Source: a virus (taxonomy: Duplodnaviria; Heunggongvirae; Uroviricota; Caudoviricetes). From it: a stretch of DNA of 28,240 nucleotides. The stretch lies in IMG/VR virus record IMGVR_UViG_2695420398_000010. One strand, given 5' to 3'. This document shows, one piece after another, positions 4,821 through 27,799 of the stretch; positions within the stretch are counted from its first letter, which is position 1, and every line of letters begins with the position of its first letter. Under the pieces are notes generated by a model. That model searched no databases. It had not been told where the DNA came from and was given only the letters and a program-made list of their open reading frames with translations. A program made the position numbers and the translations under genes.

Positions 4821-6328
4821 TGGCAATTCTTGATGATGTGATTGGCGTTTTTTCACCAGGATGGAAAGCGGCAAGGCTGCGTTCCCGTGCGGTGATCCAG
4901 GCTTATGAGGCCGTAAAAACGACGCGGACACACAAAGCCCGGCGGGAAAACCGAACTGCCGACCAGTTAAGCCAGTACGGGGCCGTGTCGTTACGTGAGC
5001 AGGCCCGTTACCTTGATAACAACCACGATCTGGTTATTGGTGTATTTGACAAGCTGGAAGAACGGGTGGTGGGGAAAAACGGGATTATTGTCGAGCCACA
5101 TCCGGTATTACGCAATGGGGCCATTGCCCGTGACCTGGCTGCGGAGATTCGCACCCGATGGAGTGAATGGTCTGTCAGCCCGGAAGTCACCGGGCAGTTT
5201 ACCCGTCCGATGCTGGAACGTCTGATGCTGCGTACCTGGCTGCGCGATGGTGAGGTGTTTGCCCAGATGGTTTCCGGGCGCATAAACAGCCTGACGCCTT
5301 CTGCCGGTGTTCATTTCTGGCTGGAGGCGCTCGAGCCGGACTTTATTCCCATGACCAGTGATGAGAGCAACAGGCTGAATCAGGGCGTGTTTGTTGATGA
5401 CTGGGGGCGTCCCGAAAAATATCTGGTGTATAAAAGCCGTCCCGTATCCGGACGGCAGATGGAAACCAAAGAAGTGGATGCAGAGCGAATGCTGCATCTT
5501 AAATTTGTTCGCCGTCTGCACCAGATGCGCGGGACGTCTTTGTTGTCCGGTGTGCTGATCCGCCTCAGTGCCCTGAAAGATTATGAAGATTATGAGCTGA
5601 CTGCAGCAAGGATCGCCGCTGCTCTGGGGATGTACATCCGCAAAGGCGACGGGCAGAGCTATGAACCGGATGGTAATGGCAGCAAGGAGAATGAACGCGA
5701 TCTTACCATTCAGCCAGGCATTATTTACGACGATCTGAAACCCGGCGAAGAAATCGGAATGGTGAAGTCGGATCGTCCCAATCCTAACCTTGAAACTTTT
5801 CGTAATGGTCAGTTGCGTGCCGTGGCGGCGGGCAGTCGTCTGAGTTTTTCCAGTACGGCACGCAACTATAACGGCACTTACAGCGCCCAGCGTCAGGAAC
5901 TGGTTGAGTCTACTGATGGCTACCTGATCCTGCAGGACTGGTTTATTGGTGCCGTCACCCGCCCGATGTATCGTGCCTGGCTGAAACAGGCTGTGGCATC
6001 CGGTGTTATCAGGCTACCCCGCGATCTTGACCGTTCTTCACTGTATACCGCGGTGTATTCCGGACCGGTGATGCCGTGGATTGACCCTGTTAAGGAGGCT
6101 GAGGCCTGGAAAATCCAGATTCGTGGTGGAGCGGCGACAGAATCAGACTGGGTACGTGCTGGTGGTCGTAATCCGGATGATGTCAAACGTCGGCGCAAGG
6201 CCGAAATTGATGAAAACCGCAAGCTGGATCTGGTATTTGATACCGATCCGGCCAGTGATAAAGGAGGCAGCAGTGCCGCAACGAAACGACATGAGCCGCA
6301 GCACACCGACGACCAGTCCGAAGAATAA
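4820..6328 (+). CDS. Portal protein (lambda gpB family)
   Basis: 503 aa from ATG 4820 (ATGA overlap with the W stop); the track ORF extends upstream to 4748 but that overlaps W. Position and size fit a portal. Confidence 0.85.
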   Translation: MAILDDVIGVFSPGWKAARLRSRAVIQAYEAVKTTRTHKARRENRTADQLSQYGAVSLREQARYLDNNHDLVIGVFDKLEERVVGKNGIIVEPHPVLRNGAIARDLAAEIRTRWSEWSVSPEVTGQFTRPMLERLMLRTWLRDGEVFAQMVSGRINSLTPSAGVHFWLEALEPDFIPMTSDESNRLNQGVFVDDWGRPEKYLVYKSRPVSGRQMETKEVDAERMLHLKFVRRLHQMRGTSLLSGVLIRLSALKDYEDYELTAARIAAALGMYIRKGDGQSYEPDGNGSKENERDLTIQPGIIYDDLKPGEEIGMVKSDRPNPNLETFRNGQLRAVAAGSRLSFSSTARNYNGTYSAQRQELVESTDGYLILQDWFIGAVTRPMYRAWLKQAVASGVIRLPRDLDRSSLYTAVYSGPVMPWIDPVKEAEAWKIQIRGGAATESDWVRAGGRNPDDVKRRRKAEIDENRKLDLVFDTDPASDKGGSSAATKRHEPQHTDDQSEE

Positions 6329-8300
6329 TTCCTGGTTCAGGATGCAGGCTGGTCACCAGAGTGACGCGGATATTTATATTTATGACGAGATTGGTTTCTG
6401 GGGTGTTACAGCGAAGCAGTTTATCAGTGATCTGAATGCACTGGGCGATATCACCCACATTAATCTCCATATTAATTCACCGGGTGGCGATGTCTTTGAA
6501 GGCATCGCCATTTTTAATGCGCTTAAAACACATGGTGCGTCCATTACCGTTTATGTCGACGGTGTGGCGGCGTCAATGGCGTCGGTCATTGCGATGGTGG
6601 GAAACCCGGTCATTATGCCGGAAAACACCTTCATGATGATTCATAAACCATTTGGCTTTACGGGCGGTGATGCGGAGGACATGCGCACCTATGCCGACCT
6701 GCTCGATAAGGTTGAGGCGGTTCTGTTACCCGCTTATGCACAGAAAACCGGGAAAACCACCGATGAAATTGCTGCCATGCTGGCGGATGAGACCTGGATG
6801 TCCGGTGCCGAATGTCTGGCACATGGATTTGCTGATCAGGTAACGCCAGCCGTTAAGGCAATGGCATGTATTCAGTCAAAACGTACAGAGGAATTTAAAA
6901 AGATGCCGGAATCCATTCGAAACATGATTACTCCGCCACGCAACAGTGCTCCACGCGTACAGGATGATGAACCTGCAGCCTCCCGGACGCCAGTGCAGGC
7001 AGCAGCACCCGTGGTGGATGAAAACAGTATCCGTGCGCAGGTACTGGCAGAGCAAAAAGCGCGTGTAAACGGTATTAATGATCTGTTTGCCATGTTTGGC
7101 GGGCGTTATCAGACACTGCAGGCTCAGTGTCTTGCCGATCCTGAATGTTCGCTGGAGCAGGCCCGCGAAAAGCTGTTGAACGAGATGGGGCGCGAGTCCA
7201 CGCCATCCAATAAAAATACCCCGGCTCATATTTATGCCGGTAACGGTAATTTTGTGGGGGACGGGATCCGCCAGGCGCTGATGGCGCGTGCCGGATTTGA
7301 AAAAACCGAACGTGATAATGTCTACAACGGGATGACCCTGCGTGAATATGCCCGTATGTCACTGACTGAACGGGGTATTGGGGTTTCCAGTTATAACCCG
7401 ATGCAGATGGTCGGTGCGGCGTTCACACACAGTACGTCTGACTTCGGTAATATTCTGCTGGATGTTGCGAATAAAGCCATTTTGCAGGGCTGGGAAGATG
7501 CCCCTGAAACCTATGAACAGTGGACGCGGAAAGGTCAGTTGTCTGATTTTAAAATTGCCCATCGTGTGGGTATGGGGGGCTTCAGTGCTCTGCGTCAGGT
7601 GCGTGAAGGGGCGGAATATAAATACGTCACCACCGGAGATAAACAGGCCACTATTGCACTGGCGACCTATGGCGAGCTGTTCAGTATCACCCGTCAGGCC
7701 ATTATCAATGATGATCTGAATATGCTGACCGATGTCCCGATGAAACTGGGCCGTGCGGCGAAATCCACTATTGCCGATCTGGTTTATGCCATTCTGACGT
7801 CTAACCCGAAAATCTCCACAGATAATGTAAGTCTGTTCGATAAAGCGAAACATGCAAACGTACTGGAGAGCGCGGCAATGGACGTGGCATCGCTGGATAA
7901 AGCCCGCCAGTTGATGCGCGTTCAGAAAGAGGGGGAGCGTCATCTGAATATTCGTCCTGCGTTCGTACTGGTACCGACGGCGATGGAGTCTGTTGCTAAC
8001 CAGGTCATTCGCTCCTCAAGTGTCAAGGGGGCTGACATTAACGCCGGTATTATTAATCCGGTGAAAGATTTTGCGACCGTTATTGCAGAGCCTCGTCTTG
8101 ATGATAACAGCCAGACCACCTTCTACCTGGCTGCGTCCAAAGGCTCCGATACGATTGAAGTGGCTTATCTCAACGGTGTGGATACGCCATATATTGATCA
8201 GATGGAGGGCTTCAGTGTGGATGGCGTGACAACGAAAGTGCGTATTGACGCTGGTGTCGCGCCAGTTGATCACCGCGGTCTGGTGAAATGTACGGCGTAA
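6273..8300 (+). CDS. Fused prohead protease (ClpP-like) / scaffold-like linker / major capsid protein
   Basis: Single uninterrupted frame; probable GTG start 6273 after AAGGAGG (alternative ATG 6291). N-terminal ClpP/S14-type protease region (GVAASMAS..., MIHKP), a charged linker, and a C-terminal major-capsid-like domain. Confidence 0.8.
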   Translation: MPQRNDMSRSTPTTSPKNNSWFRMQAGHQSDADIYIYDEIGFWGVTAKQFISDLNALGDITHINLHINSPGGDVFEGIAIFNALKTHGASITVYVDGVAASMASVIAMVGNPVIMPENTFMMIHKPFGFTGGDAEDMRTYADLLDKVEAVLLPAYAQKTGKTTDEIAAMLADETWMSGAECLAHGFADQVTPAVKAMACIQSKRTEEFKKMPESIRNMITPPRNSAPRVQDDEPAASRTPVQAAAPVVDENSIRAQVLAEQKARVNGINDLFAMFGGRYQTLQAQCLADPECSLEQAREKLLNEMGRESTPSNKNTPAHIYAGNGNFVGDGIRQALMARAGFEKTERDNVYNGMTLREYARMSLTERGIGVSSYNPMQMVGAAFTHSTSDFGNILLDVANKAILQGWEDAPETYEQWTRKGQLSDFKIAHRVGMGGFSALRQVREGAEYKYVTTGDKQATIALATYGELFSITRQAIINDDLNMLTDVPMKLGRAAKSTIADLVYAILTSNPKISTDNVSLFDKAKHANVLESAAMDVASLDKARQLMRVQKEGERHLNIRPAFVLVPTAMESVANQVIRSSSVKGADINAGIINPVKDFATVIAEPRLDDNSQTTFYLAASKGSDTIEVAYLNGVDTPYIDQMEGFSVDGVTTKVRIDAGVAPVDHRGLVKCTA

Positions 8301-16933: not shown

Positions 16934-19900
16934 ATGGGTAAAGGCAGCAGTAAGGGGCATACCCCGCGCGAAGCAAAGGACAACCTGAAGTCCACGCAGT
17001 TGCTGAGTGTGATCGATGCCATCAGCGAAGGGCCGGTTGAAGGTCCGGTGGATGGATTAAAAAGCGTGCTGCTGAACAGTACACCGGTGCTGGACAGTGA
17101 GGGGAATACTAACATCTCCGGTGTCACGGTGGTGTTCCGGGCAGGTGAGCAGGAACAGACACCGCCGGAGGGATTTGAATCATCAGGTTCCGAGACGGTA
17201 CTGGGTACGGAAGTGAAATACGACACGCCGATCACCCGGACCATCACGTCGGCAAACATTGACCGTCTGCGCTTTACCTTCGGTGTGCAGGCACTGGTGG
17301 AAACCACCTCAAAGGGGGACAGGAATCCGTCGGAAGTTCGCCTGCTGGTTCAGATACAACGTAACGGTGGCTGGGTGACGGAAAAAGACATCACCATTAA
17401 GGGCAAAACCACCTCGCAGTATCTGGCCTCGGTAGTGGTGGATAATTTGCCGCCGCGCCCGTTCAACATCCGGATGCGCAGGATGACGCCGGACAGCACC
17501 ACAGACCAGCTGCAGAACAAAACGCTCTGGTCGTCATACACCGAAATCATCGATGTGAAACAGTGCTACCCGAACACGGCACTGGTCGGCGTACAGGTGG
17601 ATTCGGAGCAGTTCGGCAGCCAGCAGGTGAGCCGTAATTATCATCTGCGCGGGCGCATTCTGCAGGTGCCGTCGAACTATAACCCGCAGACGCGGCAATA
17701 CAGCGGTATCTGGGACGGAACGTTTAAGCCAGCATACAGCAACAACATGGCCTGGTGTCTGTGGGATATGCTGACCCATCCGCGCTACGGCATGGGGAAA
17801 CGTCTTGGTGCGGCGGATGTGGACAAATGGGCGCTGTATGTCATCGGCCAGCATTGCGATCAGTCGGTGCCGGACGGTTTTGGCGGCACGGAGCCGCGCA
17901 TCACCTGTAATGCGTACCTGACCACACAGCGTAAGGCGTGGGATGTGCTCAGTGATTTCTGCTCGGCGATGCGCTGTATACCGGTATGGAACGGGCAGAC
18001 GCTGACGTTCGTGCAGGACCGACCGTCGGATAAGGCGTGGACCTATAACCGCAGTAATGTGGTGATGCCGGATGATGGCGCGCCGTTCCGCTACAGCTTC
18101 AGCGCCCTGAAGGACCGCCATAATGCCGTTGAGGTGAACTGGATTGACCCGGATAACGGCTGGGAGACGGCGACAGAGCTTGTGGAGGATACGCAGGCCA
18201 TTGCCCGTTACGGTCGTAACGTCACGAAGATGGATGCCTTTGGCTGTACCAGCCGGGGGCAGGCACACCGCGCCGGGCTGTGGCTGATTAAAACAGAACT
18301 GCTGGAAACGCAGACCGTGGACTTCAGCGTGGGTGCCGAAGGGCTTCGCCATGTACCGGGCGATGTCATTGAAATCTGCGATGATGACTATGCCGGTATC
18401 CGCACCGGCGGGCGCGTGCTGGCGGTAAACAGCCAGACCCGGACGCTGACGCTCGACCGTGAAATCACGCTGCCATCTTCCGGCACCACGCTGATAAGCC
18501 TGGTTGACGGGCAGGGGAGTCCGGTCAGCGTGGAGGTTCAGTCCGTCACCGACGGCGTGAAGGTGAAAGTGAGCCGTGTTCCTGACGGCGTTGCTGAATA
18601 CAGCGTATGGGGGCTGAAGTTGCCGACGCTGCGCCAGCGCCTGTTCCGCTGTGTGAGTATCCGTGAGAACGACGACGGCACGTATGCCATCACTGCCGTG
18701 CAGCATGTACCGGAGAAAGAAGCCATCGTGGATAACGGGGCGCACTTTGACGGTGACCAGAGCGGCACGGTGAATGGTGTCACGCCGCCAGCAGTGCAGC
18801 ATCTGACCGCCGAAGTCACCGCAGACAGCGGGGAATATCAGGTGCTGGCGCGATGGGACACGCCGAAGGTGGTGAAGGGCGTGAGCTTTATGCTTCGCCT
18901 GACCGTGGCAGCGGATGACGGCAGTGAGCGGCTGGTCAGCACGGCCAGGACGACGGAAACCACATACCGCTTCACGCAACTGGCGCTGGGGAACTACAGG
19001 CTGACGGTCCGGGCGGTAAATGCGTGGGGACAGCAGGGCGATCCGGCGTCGGTATCGTTCCGGATCGCCGCACCGGCAGCACCGTCGCGGATTGAGCTGA
19101 CGCCGGGCTATTTTCAGATAACCGCAACGCCGCATCTTGCGGTTTATGATCCGACGGTACAGTTTGAGTTCTGGTTCTCGGAAAAGCGGATTACCGATAT
19201 CAGGCAGGTTGAAACCACAGCCCGCTATCTTGGCACGGGGCTGTACTGGATAGCCGCCAGTATCAATATCAAACCGGGCCATGATTATTATTTTTACGTT
19301 CGCAGTGTGAACACCGTTGGCAAATCGGCATTCGTGGAGGCTGTTGGTCAGCCGAGTGATGACGCATCCGGCTATCTGGATTTTTTCAAAGGCGAGATAG
19401 GGAAAACCCATCTAGCTCAGGAGCTGTGGACGCAGATTGATAACGGTCAGCTTGCGCCTGACCTGGCTGAAATCAGGACGTCCATTACGGATGTCAGCAA
19501 TGAAATCACGCAGACCGTCAATAAGAAACTGGAAGACCAGAGTGCGGCAATTCAGCAGATACAGAAGGTTCAGGTTGATACAAATAATAACCTGAACAGC
19601 ATGTGGGCCGTGAAACTGCAGCAGATGCAGGACGGACGCCTTTATATTGCGGGTATCGGTGCCGGTATTGAGAATACGCCAGCAGGAATGCAGAGTCAGG
19701 TGCTGCTGGCGGCAGACAGGATTGCGATGATTAATCCTGCGAATGGCAACACAAAGCCGATGTTTGTTGGTCAGGGTGATCAGATATTCATGAACGACGT
19801 GTTCCTGAAATATCTGACGGCTCCCACCATTACCAGCGGCGGTAATCCTCCGGTATTTTCCCTGACACCGGACGGGCGGCTGACGGCGAAAAATGCCGAT

Positions 19901-20413
19901 ATCAGCGGTAACGTGAATGCGAACTCCGGGACGCTCAACAACGTCACGATTAACGAGAACTGTCGGGTTCTGGGAAAACTGTCCGCCAACCAGATTGAAG
20001 GCGATCTCGTTAAAACAGTGGGCAAAGCTTTCCCCCGGGACTCCCGTGCACCGGAACGGTGGCCATCAGGGACCATCACCGTCAGGGTTTATGACGATCA
20101 GCCGTTTGACCGGCAGATTGTTATTCCGGCGGTGGCATTCAGCGGCGCTAAACATGAGCGGGAGAATAACGATATTTATTCGTCATGCCGCCTGATAGTA
20201 CGGAAAAACGGTGCTGAAATTTATAACCGTACCGCGCTGGATAATACGCTGATTTACAGTGGTGTTATTGATATGCCTGCCGGTCACGGTCACATGACAC
20301 TGGAGTTTTCGGTGTCAGCATGGCTGGTAAATAACTGGTATCCCACAGCAAGTATCAGCGATTTGCTGGTTGTGGTGATGAAGAAAGCCACTGCAGGCAT
20401 CACGATTAGCTGA
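16934..20413 (+). CDS. J: Tail tip / host specificity protein J (central tail fibre)
   Basis: 1159 aa; N-terminal roughly 880 residues near-identical to lambda gpJ as recalled; the C-terminal roughly 280 residues (receptor-binding region) are clearly more divergent. Confidence 0.95.
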
Positions 20414-20432
20414 ATTTTATAACCCAGATACG

Positions 20433-20457
20433 GGCGCCAGAAATGGCGCCTTTTTTA
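20433..20457 (+). terminator. Rho-independent terminator after J
   Basis: GGCGCC-AGAAAT-GGCGCC followed by TTTTTT. Confidence 0.5.
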
Positions 20458-20480
20458 TTGCAGAAAAGCGAGAGGTAATT

Positions 20481-21080
20481 ATGCGTAAATTATGTGCTGT
20501 TATTTTGTCCGCAGCCATCTGTCTGTCCGTATCCGGTGCGCCTGCATGGGCGTCTGAACATCAGTCCACACTGAGCGCAGGGTATCTTCATGCCCGTACG
20601 AACGCTCCCGGCAGCGATAATCTGAACGGGATTAACGTGAAATACCGTTATGAGTTTACGGACACGCTGGGGCTGATTACGTCCTTCAGTTATGCCAATG
20701 CTGAGGATGAGCAAAAAACGCACTACAGCGATACCCGCTGGCATGAAGATTCCGTGCGTAACCGCTGGTTCAGCGTGATGGCAGGGCCGTCTGTGCGCGT
20801 GAATGAATGGTTCAGCGCGTATGCGATAGCGGGTATGGCTTACAGCCGTGTGTCGACCTTCTCCGGGGATTATCTCCGCGTAACTGACAACAAGGGGAAA
20901 ACGCACGATGTGCTGACCGGAAGTGATGACGGTCGCCACAGCAACATGTCTCTGGCGTGGGGGGCTGGCGTGCAGTTTAACCCGACCGAATCCGTGGCCA
21001 TTGATATTGCTTATGAAGGCTCCGGCAGTGGCGACTGGCGCACTGACGGTTTCATCGTGGGTGTCGGTTATAAATTCTGA
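20481..21080 (+). CDS. lom: Lom outer-membrane protein (Ail/Lom/PagC beta-barrel family)
   Basis: 199 aa with a cleavable signal peptide (AWA|SE); C-terminus YEGSGSGDWRTDGFIVGVGYKF matches lambda Lom as recalled; AAGCGAGAGG RBS. Confidence 0.9.
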   Translation: MRKLCAVILSAAICLSVSGAPAWASEHQSTLSAGYLHARTNAPGSDNLNGINVKYRYEFTDTLGLITSFSYANAEDEQKTHYSDTRWHEDSVRNRWFSVMAGPSVRVNEWFSAYAIAGMAYSRVSTFSGDYLRVTDNKGKTHDVLTGSDDGRHSNMSLAWGAGVQFNPTESVAIDIAYEGSGSGDWRTDGFIVGVGYKF

Positions 21081-21106
21081 TTAGCCAGGTAACACAGTGT
21101 TATGAC

Positions 21107-21134
21107 AGCCCGCCGGTTCAGGCGGGCTTTTTTG
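21107..21134 (+). terminator. Rho-independent terminator after lom
   Basis: AGCCCGCC-GGTTCA-GGCGGGCT followed by TTTTT. Confidence 0.5.
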
Positions 21135-21144
21135 TGGGGGGAAT

Positions 21145-24100
21145 ATGGCAGTACGGATTTCAGGTGTACTGAAAGATGGCGCAGGTAAGCCGATACAAAA
21201 CTGCACCATTCAGCTAAAGGCCAGGCGCAACAGCACCACGGTGGTGGTGAACACAGTGGCCTCAGAAAACCCGGATGAAGCCGGGCGTTACAGCATGGAC
21301 GTTGAGTACGGTCAGTACAGCGTTATTCTGTTGGTGGAAGGATTCCCGCCGTCACATGCCGGGATCATCACCGTGTATGAAGATTCCCAACCCGGTACGC
21401 TGAATGATTTTCTCGGTGCCATGACGGAGGATGATGCCCGTCCTGAGGCACTGCGCCGTTTTGAACTGATGGTGGAAGAGGTGGCGCGTAACGCGTCCGC
21501 AGTGGCACAGAACACGGCAGCCGCGAAGAAGTCAGCCGGCGATGCCGGCACATCTGCCCGTGAGGCGGCAACCCATGCGACTGATGCTGCAGGCTCAGCA
21601 CGCGCAGCCAGCACGTCAGCCGGACAGGCCGCTTCGTCGGCTCAGTCAGCGTCTTCCAGCGCAGGAACGGCATCAACAAAGGCCACTGAGGCATCGAAAA
21701 GTGCTGCTGCTGCAGAGTCCTCAAAAAGCGCGGCAGCTACCAGTGCCAGTGCCGCGAAAACGTCAGAAACGAATGCTGCAGCGTCACAACAATCAGCAGC
21801 CACTTCTGCATCCACCGCGACTACGAAAGCGTCAGAAGCTGCCACCTCAGCCCGGGATGCGGCGGCTTCAAAAGAGGCGGCAAAATCATCAGAAACGAAC
21901 GCATCCTCGAGCGCCAGTAGCGCAGCTTCCTCGGCAACGGCGACAGCAAATTCTGCGAAGGCGGCCAAAACGTCCGAGACGAACGCCAGGTCTTCTGAAA
22001 CGGCAGCGGGACAGAGTGCCTCAGCTGCGGCAGGCTCAAAAACAGCGGCTGCGTCGTCTGCCAGCGCCGCGTCAACAAGTGCCGGGCAGGCCTCAGCCAG
22101 TGCCACCGCCGCCGGAAAATCGGCAGAAAGCGCCGCATCATCCGCTTCAACAGCCACAACGAAGGCTGGCGAAGCCACTGAGCAGGCCAGCGCAGCAGCG
22201 AGGTCAGCTTCCGCAGCGAAGACATCCGAAACGAACGCGAAAGCGTCGGAAACCCGTGCAGAATCCTCAAAAACGGCTGCTGCATCGTCCGCCAGTTCGG
22301 CGGCGTCATCGGCATCATCTGCGTCTGCTTCAAAAGATGAGGCGAGCAGACAGGCATCAGCAGCGAAAGGCAGCGCCAAGACGGCATCCACGAAGGCGAC
22401 AGAGGCAGCTGGCAGTGCGACGGCGGCAGCTCAGAGCAAAAGTACGGCGGAATCCGCGGCAACGCGCGCTGAGACAGCGGCAAAACGGGCAGAGGATATT
22501 GCATCCGCCGTGGCGCTTGAGGATGCGAGCACGACGAAAAAGGGGATAGTACAGCTCAGCAGTGCGACCAACAGCACTTCCGAGTCACTGGCGGCAACGC
22601 CAAAAGCCGTTAAGGCCGCGTATGACCTGGCTAACGGGAAATACACCGCACAGGATGCAACGACAGCACAGAAAGGGATAATCCAGCTAAGCAGCGCGAC
22701 CAACAGCACGTCTGAAACGCTGGCGGCAACGCCAAAGGCAGTAAAATCAGCCTATGACAATGCAGAGAAACGTCTGCAGAAAGACCAGAACGGCGCTGAT
22801 ATACCCGATAAGGGACGCTTCCTGAACAACATTAACGCGGTCAGTAAAACAGACTTTGCTGATAAGCGTGGTATGCGTTATGTGCGGGTTAACGCTCCTG
22901 CAGGTGCAACATCTGGAAAATATTACCCTGTTGTTGTTATGCGTTCTGCTGGCTCAGTAAGCGAACTGGCATCAAGGGTCATTATCACCACGGCAACGCG
23001 AACCGCAGGCGATCCGATGAATAACTGCGAGTTTAACGGATTTGTTATGCCTGGTGGCTGGACTGACAGGGGGCGTTATGCTTATGGAATGTTCTGGCAA
23101 TATCAAAACAATGAACGAGCCATCCACTCAATAATGATGAGTAATAAGGGCGATGATTTGCGCTCTGTGTTCTATGTTGATGGCGCTGCTTTCCCTGTTT
23201 TTGCGTTTATCGAAGATGGCCTGTCAATATCCGCACCTGGTGCTGATCTCGTTGTTAATGATACGACCTATAAGTTTGGGGCAACAAATCCAGCGACTGA
23301 ATGTATCGCGGCGGACGTTATCCTTGATTTTAAGAGTGGGCGTGGTTTTTATGAGTCTCATTCGTTAATCGTTAACGATAACTTGTCGTGCAAAAAACTT
23401 TTTGCCACAGACGAAATTGTAGCGCGTGGTGGTAATCAGATTCGAATGATAGGTGGGGAGTATGGTGCATTATGGCGTAATGATGGCGCTAAAACTTACC
23501 TGCTGCTTACCAATCAAGGTGATGTTTATGGTGGCTGGAATACATTAAGACCGTTTGCTATTGATAACGCAACCGGCGAACTGGTTATTGGAACCAAACT
23601 GTCCGCAAGTCTGAACGGTAATGCATTAACAGCAACAAAGCTGCAAACGCCAAGACTGGTTTCTGGTGTTGAGTTTGATGGTTCCAAAGATATTACTTTA
23701 ACCGCCGCGCATGTGGCTGCTTTTGCCAGAAGGGCAACGGATACATATGCCGATGCGGATGGTGGCGTTCCCTGGAATGCCGAATCAGGCGCTTATAATG
23801 TCACCCGCTCTGGCGACAGCTATATTCTGGTTAACTTCTATACCGGAGTCGGAAGTTGCCGGACATTGCAGATGAAGGCGCATTACAGAAATGGTGGTCT
23901 GTTCTACCGTTCTTCAAGAGACGGTTATGGTTTTGAAGAAGACTGGGCAGAAGTTTATACCTCGAAAAATCTTCCACCAGAAAGCTACCCAGTAGGCGCA
24001 CCAATCCCGTGGCCATCAGATACCGTTCCGTCTGGCTATGCCCTGATGCAGGGGCAGGCTTTTGACAAATCTGCTTACCCGAAACTCGCAGCCGCTTATC

Positions 24101-24690
24101 CGTCAGGCGTGATCCCTGATATGCGTGGCTGGACGATTAAGGGCAAACCTGCCAGTGGTCGTGCCGTATTGTCTCAGGAACAGGACGGCATTAAATCGCA
24201 CACCCACAGCGCCAGCGCATCCAGTACGGATTTGGGGACGAAAACCACATCGTCGTTTGATTACGGCACTAAATCCACGAATAACACCGGGGCGCATACG
24301 CACAGTCTGAGTGGCTCTACGGGGTCTGCCGGTGCTCATACTCATGGTAATGGTATTCGTTGGCCAGGAGGCGGCGGTTCTGCGTTAGCATTTTATGATG
24401 GCGGTGGGTTCACTTATGTCAAGGATTCACAGTATCAAGTAAGCCCGGGGACTTCTTCCAGTAGATCGTATTATCAACGTATTCAGACACAGTCAGCAGG
24501 TGCTCATACCCACTCGCTGTCTGGTACTGCAGCAAGTTCTGGCGCACATGCACATACTGTAGGTATTGGTGCGCATACGCACTCGGTTGCGATTGGCTCA
24601 CATGGACACACCATCACCGTTAACGCTGCGGGTAACGCGGAAAACACCGTCAAAAACATCGCATTTAACTATATTGTGAGGCTTGCATAA
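21145..24690 (+). CDS. stf: Side tail fibre protein Stf (mosaic, 1181 aa)
   Basis: N-terminus near-identical to lambda Stf as recalled; long Ala/Ser/Thr-rich repeat shaft; a central block not shared with lambda Stf; C-terminal His-box repeats (GAHTHS, GAHAHT, GSHGHT) and an end matching lambda Stf ([22 protein letters not shown]). Confidence 0.85.
21500..22500 (+). repeat. In-frame degenerate tandem repeats encoding the Ala/Ser-rich Stf shaft
   Basis: Reiterated motifs such as [19 protein letters not shown] and ATTKA[GS]EA at the protein level; the low-complexity GC-rich DNA creates long phantom ORFs in other frames and on the opposite strand. Confidence 0.55.
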
Positions 24691-25274
24691 TGGCATTCAG
24701 AATGAGTGAACAACCACGGACCATAACAATTTATAATCTGCTGGCCGGAACTAATGAATTTATTGGTGAAGGTGACGCATATATTCCGCCTCATACAGGT
24801 CTGCCAGCAAACAGTACCGATATTGCACCGCCAGATATTCCGGCTGGCTTTGTGGCTGTTTTCAACAGTGATGAGGCATCGTGGCATCTCGTTGAAGACC
24901 ATCGGGGTAAAACGGTCTATGACGTGGCTTCCGGCGACGCGTTATTTATTTCTGAACTCGGCTCATTACCGGAAAATGTCACCTGGTTATCCCCGGAAGG
25001 GGAGTTTCAGAAGTGGAACGGTACAGTCTGGGTGAAGGATACGGAAGCAGAAAAACTGTTCCGGATCCGGGAGGCGGAAGAAACAAAAAACAGCCTGATG
25101 CAGGTAGCCAGTGAGCATATAGCGCCGCTTCAGGATGCTGTAGATCTGGAGATTGCAACGGAAGAAGAGGCGTCGTTGCTGGAAGCCTGGAAGAAGTATC
25201 GGGTGTTGCTGAACCGTGTTGATACATCAACTGCACCTGATATTGAGTGGCCTGCTGTCCCTGTTATGGAGTAA
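24690..25274 (+). CDS. tfa: Tail fibre assembly protein Tfa
   Basis: 194 aa, same length as lambda Tfa and near-identical to it as recalled; start overlaps the stf stop (TAATG). Confidence 0.9.
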
Positions 25275-25288
25275 TCGTTTTGTGATAT

Positions 25289-25323
25289 GCCGCAGAAACG
25301 TTGTATGAAATAACGTTCTGCGG
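25289..25323. terminator. Bidirectional terminator hairpin between convergent tfa and the ea47-like gene
   Basis: CCGCAGAAACGTT-GTATGAAAT-AACGTTCTGCGG, a roughly 12-bp stem, between the two convergent stop codons. Confidence 0.5.
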
Positions 25324-25402
25324 TTAGTTAGTATATTGTAAAGCTGAGTATTGGTTTATTTGGCGATTATTATCTTCAGGAGAATAATGGAAGTTCTATG
25401 AC

Positions 25403-26635
25403 TCAATTGTTCATAGTGTTTACATCACCGCCAATTGCTTTTAAGACTGAACGCATGAAATATGGTTTTTCGTCATGTTTTGAGTCTGCTGTTGATATTT
25501 CTAAAGTCGGTTTTTTTTCTTCGTTTTCTCTAACTATTTTCCATGAAATACATTTTTGATTATTATTTGAATCAATTCCAATTACCTGAAGTCTTTCATC
25601 TATAATTGGCATTGTATGTATTGGTTTATTGGAGTAGATGCTTGCTTTTCTGAGCCATAGCTCTGATATCCAAATGAAGCCATAGGCATTTGTTATTTTG
25701 GCTCTGTCAGCTGCATAACGCCAAAAAATATATTTATCTGCTTGATCTTCAAATGTTGTATTGATTAAATCAATTGGATGGAATTGTTTATCATAAAAAA
25801 TTAATGTTTGAATGTGATAACCGTCCTTTAAAAAAGTCGTTTCTGCAAGCTTGGCTGTATAGTCAACTAACTCTTCTGTCGAAGTGATATTTTTAGGCTT
25901 ATCTACCAGTTTTAGACGCTCTTTAATATCTTCAGGAATTATTTTATTGTCATATTGTATCATGCTAAATGACAATTTGCTTATGGAGTAATCTTTTAAT
26001 TTTAAATAAGTTATTCTCCTGGCTTCATCAAATAAAGAGTCGAATGATGTTGGCGAAATCACATCGTCACCCATTGGATTGTTTATTTGTATGCCAAGAG
26101 AGTTACAGCAGTTATACATTCTGCCATAGATTATAGCTAAGGCATGTAATAATTCGTAATCTTTTAGCGTATTAGCGACCCATCGTCTTTCTGATTTAAT
26201 AATAGATGATTCAGTTAAATATGAAGGTAATTTCTTTTGTGCAAGTCTGACTAACTTTTTTATACCAATGTTTAACATACTTTCATTTGTAATAAACTCA
26301 ATGTCATTTTCTTCAATGTAAGATGAAATAAGAGTAGCCTTTGCCTCGCTATACATTTCTAAATCGCCTTGTTTTTCTATCGTATTGCGAGAATTTTTAG
26401 CCCAAGCCATTAATGGATCATTTTTCCATTTTTCAATAACATTATTGTTATACCAAATGTCATATCCTATAATCTGGTTTTTGTTTTTTTGAATAATAAA
26501 TGTTACTGTTCTTGCGGTTTGGAGGAATTGATTCAAATTCAAGCGGAATAATTCAGGGTCAAAATATGTATCAATGCAGCATTTGAGCAAGTGCGATAAA
26601 TCTTTAAGTCTTCTTTCCCATGGTTTTTTAGTCAT
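25403..26635 (-). CDS. ea47: Ea47-like protein of unknown function (AT-rich accessory gene)
   Basis: Long uninterrupted minus-strand ORF in visibly AT-rich DNA; starting at the third in-frame Met (MTKKPWERRL, GGAGAG RBS upstream) gives 410 aa / 1233 nt, the size of lambda ea47, and the 128-nt gap from tfa matches lambda; track ORF extends to 26662 (419 aa). No Walker A, HNH or HEPN motif seen by eye. Confidence 0.6.
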   Translation of the reverse strand: MTKKPWERRLKDLSHLLKCCIDTYFDPELFRLNLNQFLQTARTVTFIIQKNKNQIIGYDIWYNNNVIEKWKNDPLMAWAKNSRNTIEKQGDLEMYSEAKATLISSYIEENDIEFITNESMLNIGIKKLVRLAQKKLPSYLTESSIIKSERRWVANTLKDYELLHALAIIYGRMYNCCNSLGIQINNPMGDDVISPTSFDSLFDEARRITYLKLKDYSISKLSFSMIQYDNKIIPEDIKERLKLVDKPKNITSTEELVDYTAKLAETTFLKDGYHIQTLIFYDKQFHPIDLINTTFEDQADKYIFWRYAADRAKITNAYGFIWISELWLRKASIYSNKPIHTMPIIDERLQVIGIDSNNNQKCISWKIVRENEEKKPTLEISTADSKHDEKPYFMRSVLKAIGGDVNTMNN

Positions 26636-26811
26636 AAAACTCTCCATTTTGATAGGTTGCATGCTAGATGCTGATATATTTTAGAGGTGATAAAATTAAC
26701 TGCTTAACTGTCAATGTAATACAAGTTGTTTGATCTTTGCAATGATTCTTATCAGAAACCATATAGTAAATTAGTTACACAGGAAATTTTTAATATTATT
26801 ATTATCATTCA

Positions 26812-27126
26812 TTATGTATTAAAATTAGAGTTGTGGCTTGGCTCTGCTAACACGTTGCTCATAGGAGATATGGTAGAGCCGCAGACACGTCGTATGCAGG
26901 AACGTGCTGCGGCTGGCTGGTGAACTTTCGATAGTGCGAGTATTGAATGATTTCCAACTGTTATCGATTTTGCGTATTTTTTGCATGAGAGGATTTTTAC
27001 CTCCTCCCACCGATCCTCCATGGCTTTACGCCAGTGTCTCTGGTCTGCTATGTGCCAGGAGCAGCCATTGCTAAGTCCATCCTGTATTGTGCAGGTCAGC
27101 TCGTTTTTAAAGAGTCCGGCCATCAT
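26812..27126 (-). CDS. Hypothetical 104-aa ORF upstream of and co-oriented with the ea47-like gene (doubtful)
   Basis: Open frame of near-normal GC content with a weak RBS and tandem ATG start; no recognisable family; could be a decayed remnant. Confidence 0.15.
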   Translation of the reverse strand: MMAGLFKNELTCTIQDGLSNGCSWHIADQRHWRKAMEDRWEEVKILSCKKYAKSITVGNHSILALSKVHQPAAARSCIRRVCGSTISPMSNVLAEPSHNSNFNT

Positions 27127-27466: not shown

Positions 27467-27799
27467 ATGTCTGTCACAATTCAGGGAAATACCTCAACCG
27501 TTATTTCAAACAACTCCGCCCCGGAAGGAACATCAGAAATAGCCAAAATCACAAGACAAATTCAGGTGCTGACTGAAAAGCTTGGGAAAATCTCATCGGA
27601 AGAGGGGATGACGACACAGCAGAAAAAAGAAATGGCTGCATTGGTACAGAAGCAAATTGAAAGCCTCAGGGCTCAACTGGAGCAGTTGTTAAGGCAGCAG
27701 GCAGAGAAAAAGAATGAAGACGCGACAGTTCAGCCTGATAAAAAAGAAGAGAAAAAAGACGATACAAATACCGCTGGCACCATTGATATTTACGTCTAA
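27467..27799 (+). CDS. flxA: FlxA-like small coiled-coil protein
   Basis: 110 aa with a Ser/Thr-rich N-terminus, central heptad-like coiled-coil and Lys/Glu-rich C-terminus; size and architecture match prophage FlxA-family proteins and it carries a sigma-28-type promoter; strong RBS. Confidence 0.55.
   Translation: MSVTIQGNTSTVISNNSAPEGTSEIAKITRQIQVLTEKLGKISSEEGMTTQQKKEMAALVQKQIESLRAQLEQLLRQQAEKKNEDATVQPDKKEEKKDDTNTAGTIDIYV

Follow-up and report, generated by a model that had tools for sequence, protein, structure and literature searches.

Tail-fibre genes are a textbook case of modular exchange between phages, and the side tail fibre gene (stf) in IMG/VR virus record IMGVR_UViG_2695420398_000010 raises the question of what an exchanged fibre segment does for the phage that carries it. 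The record, a 28,240-nucleotide (nt) stretch of caudovirus DNA (hereafter the window), encodes a Stf protein whose central part, about 400 amino acids (aa), does not resemble that of lambda Stf, and the original prediction proposed that this block is an inserted or exchanged domain that could alter receptor or glycan specificity. Judging from the alignments presented here, the fibre is an StfR-type allele of a kind already known, in which repeat number and tip allele come together in a new way. We consider it likely that the protein is a Rac/StfR-type lambdoid Stf built of exchangeable cassettes, in which the centre is architectural and the tip sets the receptor.

The window represents the late region of a lambdoid prophage, in which stf occupies its usual place in the order J (16934-20413), lom (20481-21080, PF06316), stf and tfa. 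The stf open reading frame (ORF), 1181 codons on the plus strand, is uninterrupted, indicating an intact side tail fibre gene. A Pfam scan of the product identifies PF08400 at the N-terminus (E=5e-72), two Phage_fiber_2 domains from residue 462, PF07484 at residues 951-998, and PF03335 His-box repeats. The protein thus combines the N-terminal anchor, the gene order, and the collar and His-box gp37-like tip of a lambdoid Stf, for which the predicted role is that of a trimeric fibre on virions that speeds adsorption.

To define the segment that differs from lambda, the uninterrupted 774-aa Stf (P03764 restored) of the Ur-lambda record KT232076 was used as the lambda reference, and window positions 20401-25500 were aligned with the stf of this record by blastn. 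Five stretches are lambda-like, at 20953-22053 (86% identity), 22381-22615 (81%), 22652-22745 (83%), 23994-24339 (80%), and 24511-25500 (93%), the third of which corresponds to the second copy of the Phage_fiber_2 repeat, and no blastn alignment to Ur-lambda stf covers 22746-23993. At the protein level, identity with lambda stops after the motif ATPKAVK (window aa 534, lambda aa 385) and restarts at the motif GAPIPWPSD (window aa 951, lambda aa 533), and 416 window residues (aa 535-950) occupy the place of 147 lambda residues (386-532). A pure insertion into lambda stf is ruled out, because these 147 residues are missing at the same place. In the model of the Ur-lambda fibre, a proximal coiled coil (102-393) is followed by a hinge (394-422), a distal domain (423-525), and a gp37-like receptor-binding domain (PMC12617516). 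Placed on this model, the absence of lambda residues 386-532 indicates that the exchanged piece comprises the hinge and the distal shaft, plus the last residues of the proximal coil. On this alignment, the centre is a replacement of the lambda hinge and distal shaft, not an insertion.

The base composition of the centre sets it apart as well. The GC content is 46.5% overall and 40.1% at third codon positions (GC3) in the central cassette, compared with 54.2% and 59.1% in the stf N-terminus, 62.1% and 52.1% in the Ala/Ser coil, where Ala codons raise the GC content at second codon positions, 52.7% and 47.0% in the stf C-terminus, and 56.4% and 66.7% in J. The central GC3 of 40% thus stands against 52-67% in the neighbouring upstream segments, and because third codon positions drop too, the AT-richness of the centre is more than an effect of amino-acid composition. 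The lower GC3 suggests an origin of the cassette in a lower-GC phage gene pool.

These results agree with the original prediction in several respects. It had placed a block unlike lambda Stf at 22750-24000, which is right within a few bases; lambda Stf contains neither of the two strings it gave as landmarks, one of 12 residues and EVYTSKNL, which the window protein has at aa 539-550 and aa 936-943, respectively; and it had described the central DNA as AT-richer than its flanks, as the composition profile confirms. Of the three-part mosaic with an inserted or exchanged domain, the mosaic and the exchange stand, and the insertion does not. The N-terminus, which it had described as lambda-like, is mostly so; an expansion of the coil and an extra 44-aa Phage_fiber_2 repeat had been overlooked.

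Specifically, the StfN domain, which forms a collar around the tail (PMC12617516), is 87-97% identical to lambda in each 30-aa window over aa 1-120, and the attachment domain and coiled coil together are 83-97% identical to Ur-lambda Stf per 30-aa window, except for 60% in aa 121-150. The Ala/Ser-rich coil is ~108 aa longer than that of lambda (aa ~301-408, 22045-22368). This expansion is seen in all five other lambdoid fibres compared, indicating that lambda is the short variant. Tandem Repeats Finder reported nothing in 21000-24800, the coil repeats being too degenerate for it, and a repeat search in the coil recovered only short families of 24-26 nt. The Phage_fiber_2 repeats are present as 107-nt copies at 22520-22626 and 22652-22758, which are 77% identical and lie 132 nt apart. 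Their number is polymorphic, with two copies in the window and in phage mEp460, and one in lambda, K-12 StfR, PhiR34_1 and Turner. The second copy ends at the left joint of the central cassette.

The central cassette is widespread. At the nucleotide level, stf of phage PhiR34_1 and the stfR gene of the E. coli K-12 Rac prophage are both 98% identical to it, the match with K-12 stfR spanning 22652-24320. Every 30-aa window over aa 541-960 is 97-100% identical to K-12 StfR and PhiR34_1 Stf, and the identity with the StfR-type centre is 100% over aa 571-810 and 841-930. By megablast, at least 80% of 22750-24000 is found in 1307 of 5426 complete E. coli genomes, about a quarter, most of the matches being annotated as stfR or as 'prophage tail fiber N-terminal domain-containing protein'. 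Nine phage records, including ev099, PhiR34_1, Kati, mEp332, 2H10 and 204576, span at least 80% of the whole gene; isolated phages other than PhiR34_1 span 92-99% of the gene at 94-96% nucleotide identity, and the DNA of phage 204576 aligns unbroken from 22652 through the tip and tfa. Furthermore, the 1181-aa protein itself is on deposit at NCBI, identical in full (WP_072176103.1). In phage Turner, the first three-quarters of the centre have diverged (40-83% identity per 30-aa window over aa 541-840) but the last quarter is identical, indicating that recombination also takes place inside the cassette. Among the oddly named database fragments of the fibre (P0034, P0035, P0037, P0038, P0041, P0092 and P0105), several are entered in NCBI sources as 'short-chain fatty acid transporter', and others as 'ATP-dependent Clp protease proteolytic subunit' or 'terminase large subunit'; such names look like annotation errors or fused gene calls.

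The closest relatives, K-12 Rac StfR (1120 aa, WP_000279097.1), PhiR34_1, ev099, mEp332, 2H10, Kati and 204576, have the J-lom-stf-tfa position in common with the window. The K-12 StfR/PhiR34_1 group shares the same N-terminal domain, the expanded Ala/Ser coil, the central cassette, and the scaffold of collar and needle. K-12 StfR and PhiR34_1 lack the second Phage_fiber_2 repeat (44 aa) and carry another tip allele, with only 7% identity between the window and K-12 StfR in the tip over aa 1081-1110. Given the extra repeat and the different tip, the window encodes a recombinant variant and does not match the K-12 StfR allele from end to end. Ur-lambda Stf, besides the replaced residues 386-532, lacks the ~108 coil residues and the second repeat, has another tip head segment, and carries extra FDYGTK and His-box repeats; in common with the window it has one Phage_fiber_2 repeat, a collar and His-box needle that are 90-100% identical outside the tip, and the same downstream gene.

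To analyse the anatomy of the centre, 1.84 billion representative proteins were scanned with its sequence, and the start and end points of the 2954 matches were used to delimit sub-modules, which recur separately in hundreds of other fibres. The centre begins with a linker, and mEp460 and PhiR29_1 stay similar to the window until about aa 560. Module A, which follows, has no Pfam match even at E<=10 and no PDB sequence match. Its predicted structure is compact and all-beta, with a mean predicted local distance difference test score (pLDDT) of 82.7 and a predicted template modelling score (pTM) of 0.81. By tblastn, module A is present in 262 phage records, including 9g, P2-like, T5-like, rV5-like, Queuovirinae and Aeromonas T4-like phages; the annotated records among those listed place it in tail-fibre or hypothetical genes, save two rows named 'chaperone of endosialidase'. 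An alignment of module A reveals invariant residues N67, C69, E98, H102 and S103 (A2 numbering), together with several Pro, Gly and aromatic positions. On the basis of the model, module A is an uncharacterised, fibre-specific beta-sandwich knob.

Module B matches PF21446 (Gp34_trimer) over residues 707-806 with 95.6 bits (cutoff 27), and also matches Mu S residues 268-336 and T4 gp34 residues 1036-1106; its PDB sequence matches are 4uxe, 5nxf, 5nxh and 9x3r (E~1e-11), and 5yvq. It is followed by a ~40-aa repeat, delimited by 144 match starts at query positions 281-290 and 111 match ends at 321-330, as well as by matches in several stretches. Module C matches 8ju3, a Mu S/S' chimera, at residues 321-415 (independent domain E-value 5e-21), and PF12604 (gp37_C) with 26.5 bits (cutoff 22.5).

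Searched as a whole, the centre matches the Mu fibre S/S' (E 5e-32 and 7e-20) and the T4 gp34 C-terminus (E 4e-12) among PDB sequences. An AlphaFold2 model of the whole centre, built from an alignment of 59 sequences, has a mean pLDDT of 84.7. Foldseek places this model closest to the T4 gp34 C-terminus (4uxg_D, E=1.3e-9, probability 1.00) and the Mu fibre (2.7e-9 and 4e-8), matches the R2 pyocin fibre more weakly, and finds no other significant PDB neighbours; the global TM-score with 4uxg_D is only 0.19, because the model is a monomer of an extended multi-domain chain. No significant profile or fold match to a carbohydrate-binding module, lectin or glycoside hydrolase family was found in the centre, and the lectin or glycosidase-like fold that the original prediction had proposed to look for is thus not apparent.

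The two structural relatives frame the interpretation of the centre. The gp34 C-terminal region is a triple beta-helix shaft punctuated by globular beta domains (PMC5537660). Like gp34 (4UXE/4UXG/5NXF/5NXH), the window fibre would be a trimeric shaft with beta-rich knobs separated by triple beta-helix repeats. However, the similarity extends over only ~70 residues (gp34 1036-1106), and module A is undetectable in gp34 by sequence. In T4, moreover, the proximal half-fibre is a protein of its own, gp34, which stops at the knee; the window domain is part of a single-chain fibre. The Mu fibre S/S' (5YVQ, 8JU3, 9KI1) shares the linker after ATxKAVK (LAATAKAVK...DRNGADIP), the gp34-like domain, and module C (~50% identity in the alignment), but it has neither the lambda-type N-terminus nor module A, and its receptor-binding tip is different and is served by a separate chaperone, U/U'. 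In Mu, the tips are exchanged through inversion of the G segment, which is absent in the window.

The tip also differs between fibres. The C-terminus of the window protein is 69% identical to lambda 529-774, and aa 961-1050 are 90-100% identical to lambda in each 30-aa window. The C-termini of the window, lambda, K-12 StfR, PhiR34_1, Turner, mEp460 and PhiR29_1 were aligned. Hardly any variation is seen in the collar and the two His-box arrays, and the ~50-residue segment between the arrays occurs in five unrelated versions among the seven fibres. The segment is bracketed by 21-nt direct repeats (D4, 24324-24344 and 24492-24512), which encode SAGAHTH. The tip allele of the window, which differs from those of lambda and K-12 StfR, is present in 720 of the 5426 complete E. 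coli genomes. The extreme C-terminus, which had been described as lambda-like, is so in its collar and His-box arrays; the hypervariable segment differs from lambda and had been overlooked.

Centres and tips occur in various combinations. The StfR-type centre is paired with three tips (those of the window, K-12 StfR and PhiR34_1), while the PhiR34_1 tip is paired with two centres (those of PhiR34_1 and mEp460). These combinations indicate independent assortment, as expected of a scaffold cassette and a separate specificity cassette. In T4 gp37, the chain runs down the needle, forms a head, and returns, and this head, at the tip, is where host-range mutations lie (PMC5221442). The tip of lambda Stf, a homologue of that of gp37, has been modelled into and predicted to bind OmpC (PMC12617516). 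By analogy, the segment at aa ~1067-1120 should form the distal head domain, and it is probably the receptor-contacting head and the true specificity cassette; receptor specificity more probably resides in this segment than in the centre. The proposal that the swapped centre alters receptor or glycan specificity is thus less plausible than a determinant in the tip, which assorts independently of it. The original prediction had also presupposed that no lambda-family Stf would align collinearly over its full length; K-12 StfR and PhiR34_1 essentially do so, differing only by the 44-aa repeat and the tip.

Taken together, we infer that the fibre is organised as follows. The conserved N-terminal part, comprising the attachment domain and the Ala/Ser coil, would fix the fibre to the tail. 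The centre would stand in for the lambda hinge and distal shaft, and its most likely role would be to determine how long, how stiff and how bent the distal half-fibre is, to supply trimerisation nuclei, and to present the tip, with the ~40-aa repeat predicted from the gp34 structure to have triple-beta-helix character. The C-terminal gp37-like collar and His-box needle would carry the receptor-binding head, folded with the help of Tfa, and the receptor would be chosen mainly by the hypervariable tip segment.

Exchange of the cassette probably took place by homologous recombination at short motifs that the fibres of unrelated phages conserve, namely ATPKAVK to the left of the cassette and GAPIPWPSD to its right. 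Specifically, the left joint lies in the Phage_fiber_2 repeat, the ATxKAVK motif and following linker of which are common to the Mu S fibre, and the right joint coincides with the beginning of the collar, a domain conserved by every lambdoid fibre in the comparison. The conserved islands at both joints could serve as substrates for homologous recombination. Consistent with such a route, lambda recombines experimentally with Rac (stfR/tfaR) and Qin across stf/tfa (PMC3945230). In addition, engineered lambda STF chimeras fused at R393 and S528 are functional (PMC11338833), indicating that these positions are permissive domain boundaries. The natural joints are no more than 8 and 5 residues away from them, respectively.

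Several points weigh against this interpretation. The low GC3 is partly common to the stf 3' end and tfa (47%), and the centre contrasts sharply with its left flank but much less with its right. The protein is trimeric but was modelled as a monomer, and inter-domain geometry, length and hinge are outside the reach of such models. The position of the conserved motifs is the sole basis for the putative recombination route. No experiment, either in the cited literature or here, assigns the function of the centre. Finally, module A is compact and conserved and has invariant polar residues, which could equally indicate a binding site.

The last point leads to the alternative that the centre adds an accessory binding activity, such that module A is a lectin-like or otherwise ligand-binding domain that contacts lipopolysaccharide, O-antigen or capsule before the tip does, and its swap alters host range. 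The confident prediction of a compact all-beta domain and the invariant polar residues in the motifs PMNNCEF and ERAIHS speak for this alternative, as does the restriction of module A to the tail fibres of numerous unrelated phages, a distribution that a host-interaction module would be expected to show. However, ~200-400 residues separate module A from the tip downstream of it, and it occupies the place of shaft knobs such as the P-domains of T4 gp34, which are not known to have a ligand. Moreover, the pairing of one centre with several tips, and of one tip with several centres, fits a generic scaffold, and Pro, Gly and aromatic positions make up many of the invariant residues of module A, as is usual in a structural core or at a trimer interface. 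We therefore regard an accessory binding role as unlikely, and its more specific form, in which module A, known from long or lateral tail fibres of lambdoid, 9g-like, P2-like, T5-like, rV5-like and Aeromonas T4-like phages, is an unrecognised secondary glycan-recognising host-binding domain on the shaft and StfR-type fibres have two specificity determinants, as somewhat less likely still.

It is very improbable that the block is a recent, strain-specific foreign insertion into a lambda-type stf, giving a new architecture peculiar to this prophage. Compared with lambda alone, the segment does resemble 1.25 kb of unrelated, AT-richer DNA, but the lambda residues are replaced, not interrupted. 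Strain-specific novelty is refuted by the shared architecture of K-12 StfR and PhiR34_1, by the 1307 genomes that carry the centre, and by the deposited identical protein.

Least credible of all is that the centre is part of an invertible host-range switch of the Pin/Gin/Cin type, as in Mu, P1, e14 and the Rac pinR region: related fibres in Rac (pinR), PhiR34_1, Turner and mEp460 do have a Pin-type serine invertase directly downstream of a similar stf-tfa, and the centre does have homology to Mu S/S', but in the window tfa is followed by a lambda-type gene in the ea47 position, where K-12 Rac has pinR, and the hypothesis was rejected because 21000-27000 contains no Pin-type invertase and no paired crossover sites with an inverted second fibre 3' end, the stf 3' region contains no crossover-type inverted repeats (the only inverted pair is 24 nt long and 75% complementary), and the window ORFs include no alternative inverted fibre C-terminus or second tfa copy.

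The allele carries little weight as a discovery, having been known in E. coli K-12, as Rac StfR, since that genome was sequenced. Its practical value is rather that it provides a natural confirmation of domain-swap points in lambda-type fibres (lambda aa ~385 and ~533), which coincide with the R393 and S528 fusion points of engineered lambda delivery particles (PMC11338833). At least four segments of the fibre vary independently, namely the coil in its length, the repeat in its number, the shaft cassette and the tip head, and host-range prediction from a prophage stf should look at the tip head, not at the large central block. Module A would suit a structure determination or an entry of its own in Pfam, and a second binding site in it, should one be demonstrated, would be moderately interesting. 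The coordinates of the features are collected in Table 1.

Table 1. Features of stf and tfa in the window, with the residues of Stf that they encode
Feature	Coordinates	Strand	Residues (aa)	Evidence or remark
stf, side tail fibre	21145-24690	+	1181 in total	Pfam phage_tail_N 1-134, Phage_fiber_2 x2, Gp34_trimer 707-806, Collar 951-998, Phage_fiber
StfN tail-attachment domain	21145-21546	+	1-134	PF08400; lambda-like
Ala/Ser-rich proximal coiled-coil shaft	21475-22521	+		GC 62%; degenerate 24-26 nt direct repeats D1, D3
Two tandem Phage_fiber_2 repeats	22520-22758	+		14-residue motif, then ...ATPKAVK; Pfam, direct repeat D2
Central cassette	22747-23994	+	535-950	Without lambda homology; AT-richer than flanks
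Linker	22747-22830	+	535-562	11-residue motif; shared with Mu tail fibre S residues 133-171 (5yvq/8ju3)
Module A, predicted beta-sandwich 'knob'	22831-23370	+	~563-742	Motifs PMNNCEF, GGWxDRG, ERAIHS, FYVxxRAFP conserved
Module B, T4 gp34 C-terminal 'trimerisation' domain	23263-23604	+	~707/751-820	PF21446, PDB, Foldseek
~40-aa fibre repeat	23590-23724	+	816-860	30-residue motif; many reiterations in other tail fibres
Module C, Mu S'-type/gp37_C-like	23725-23979	+	861-945	Precedes tip
Collar and descending His-box strand of gp37-like tip	23995-24342	+		PF07484 951-998; right joint GAPIPWPSD
Hypervariable tip segment	24343-24504	+	~1067-1120	Between two His-box arrays
tfa, tail fibre assembly chaperone	24690-25274	+		PF02413; 95% identity with lambda Tfa

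Directly after tfa, a 419-aa gene on the minus strand (25403-26662) has a low GC content (~31%) and contrasts sharply in composition with the neighbouring DNA. Its product is 100% identical, over the 261 residues available, to that of the gene downstream of tfa in the Ur-lambda record, a location that in lambda is the ea47 position (PMC3945230). It matches phrog_19262 (unknown function), and has no Pfam, NCBIfam or PADLOC match; no named NCBIfam family was found for Stf, for this ea47-like protein, or for a FlxA-like ORF further downstream. The whole 12-kb right end of the window is present at >96% identity in no complete E. coli genome of the collection. The FlxA-like ORF (27467-27799, plus strand, 110 aa) has a homologue annotated flxA in the related E. 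coli locus L008, which suggests that the prophage ends, on its right, close to a chromosomal site of the Qin type. A 739-aa ORF (6081-8300, plus strand) that precedes the tail genes, within the head-gene region, may encode a fused head protein of large size, such as certain lambdoid prophages of non-lambda type possess.

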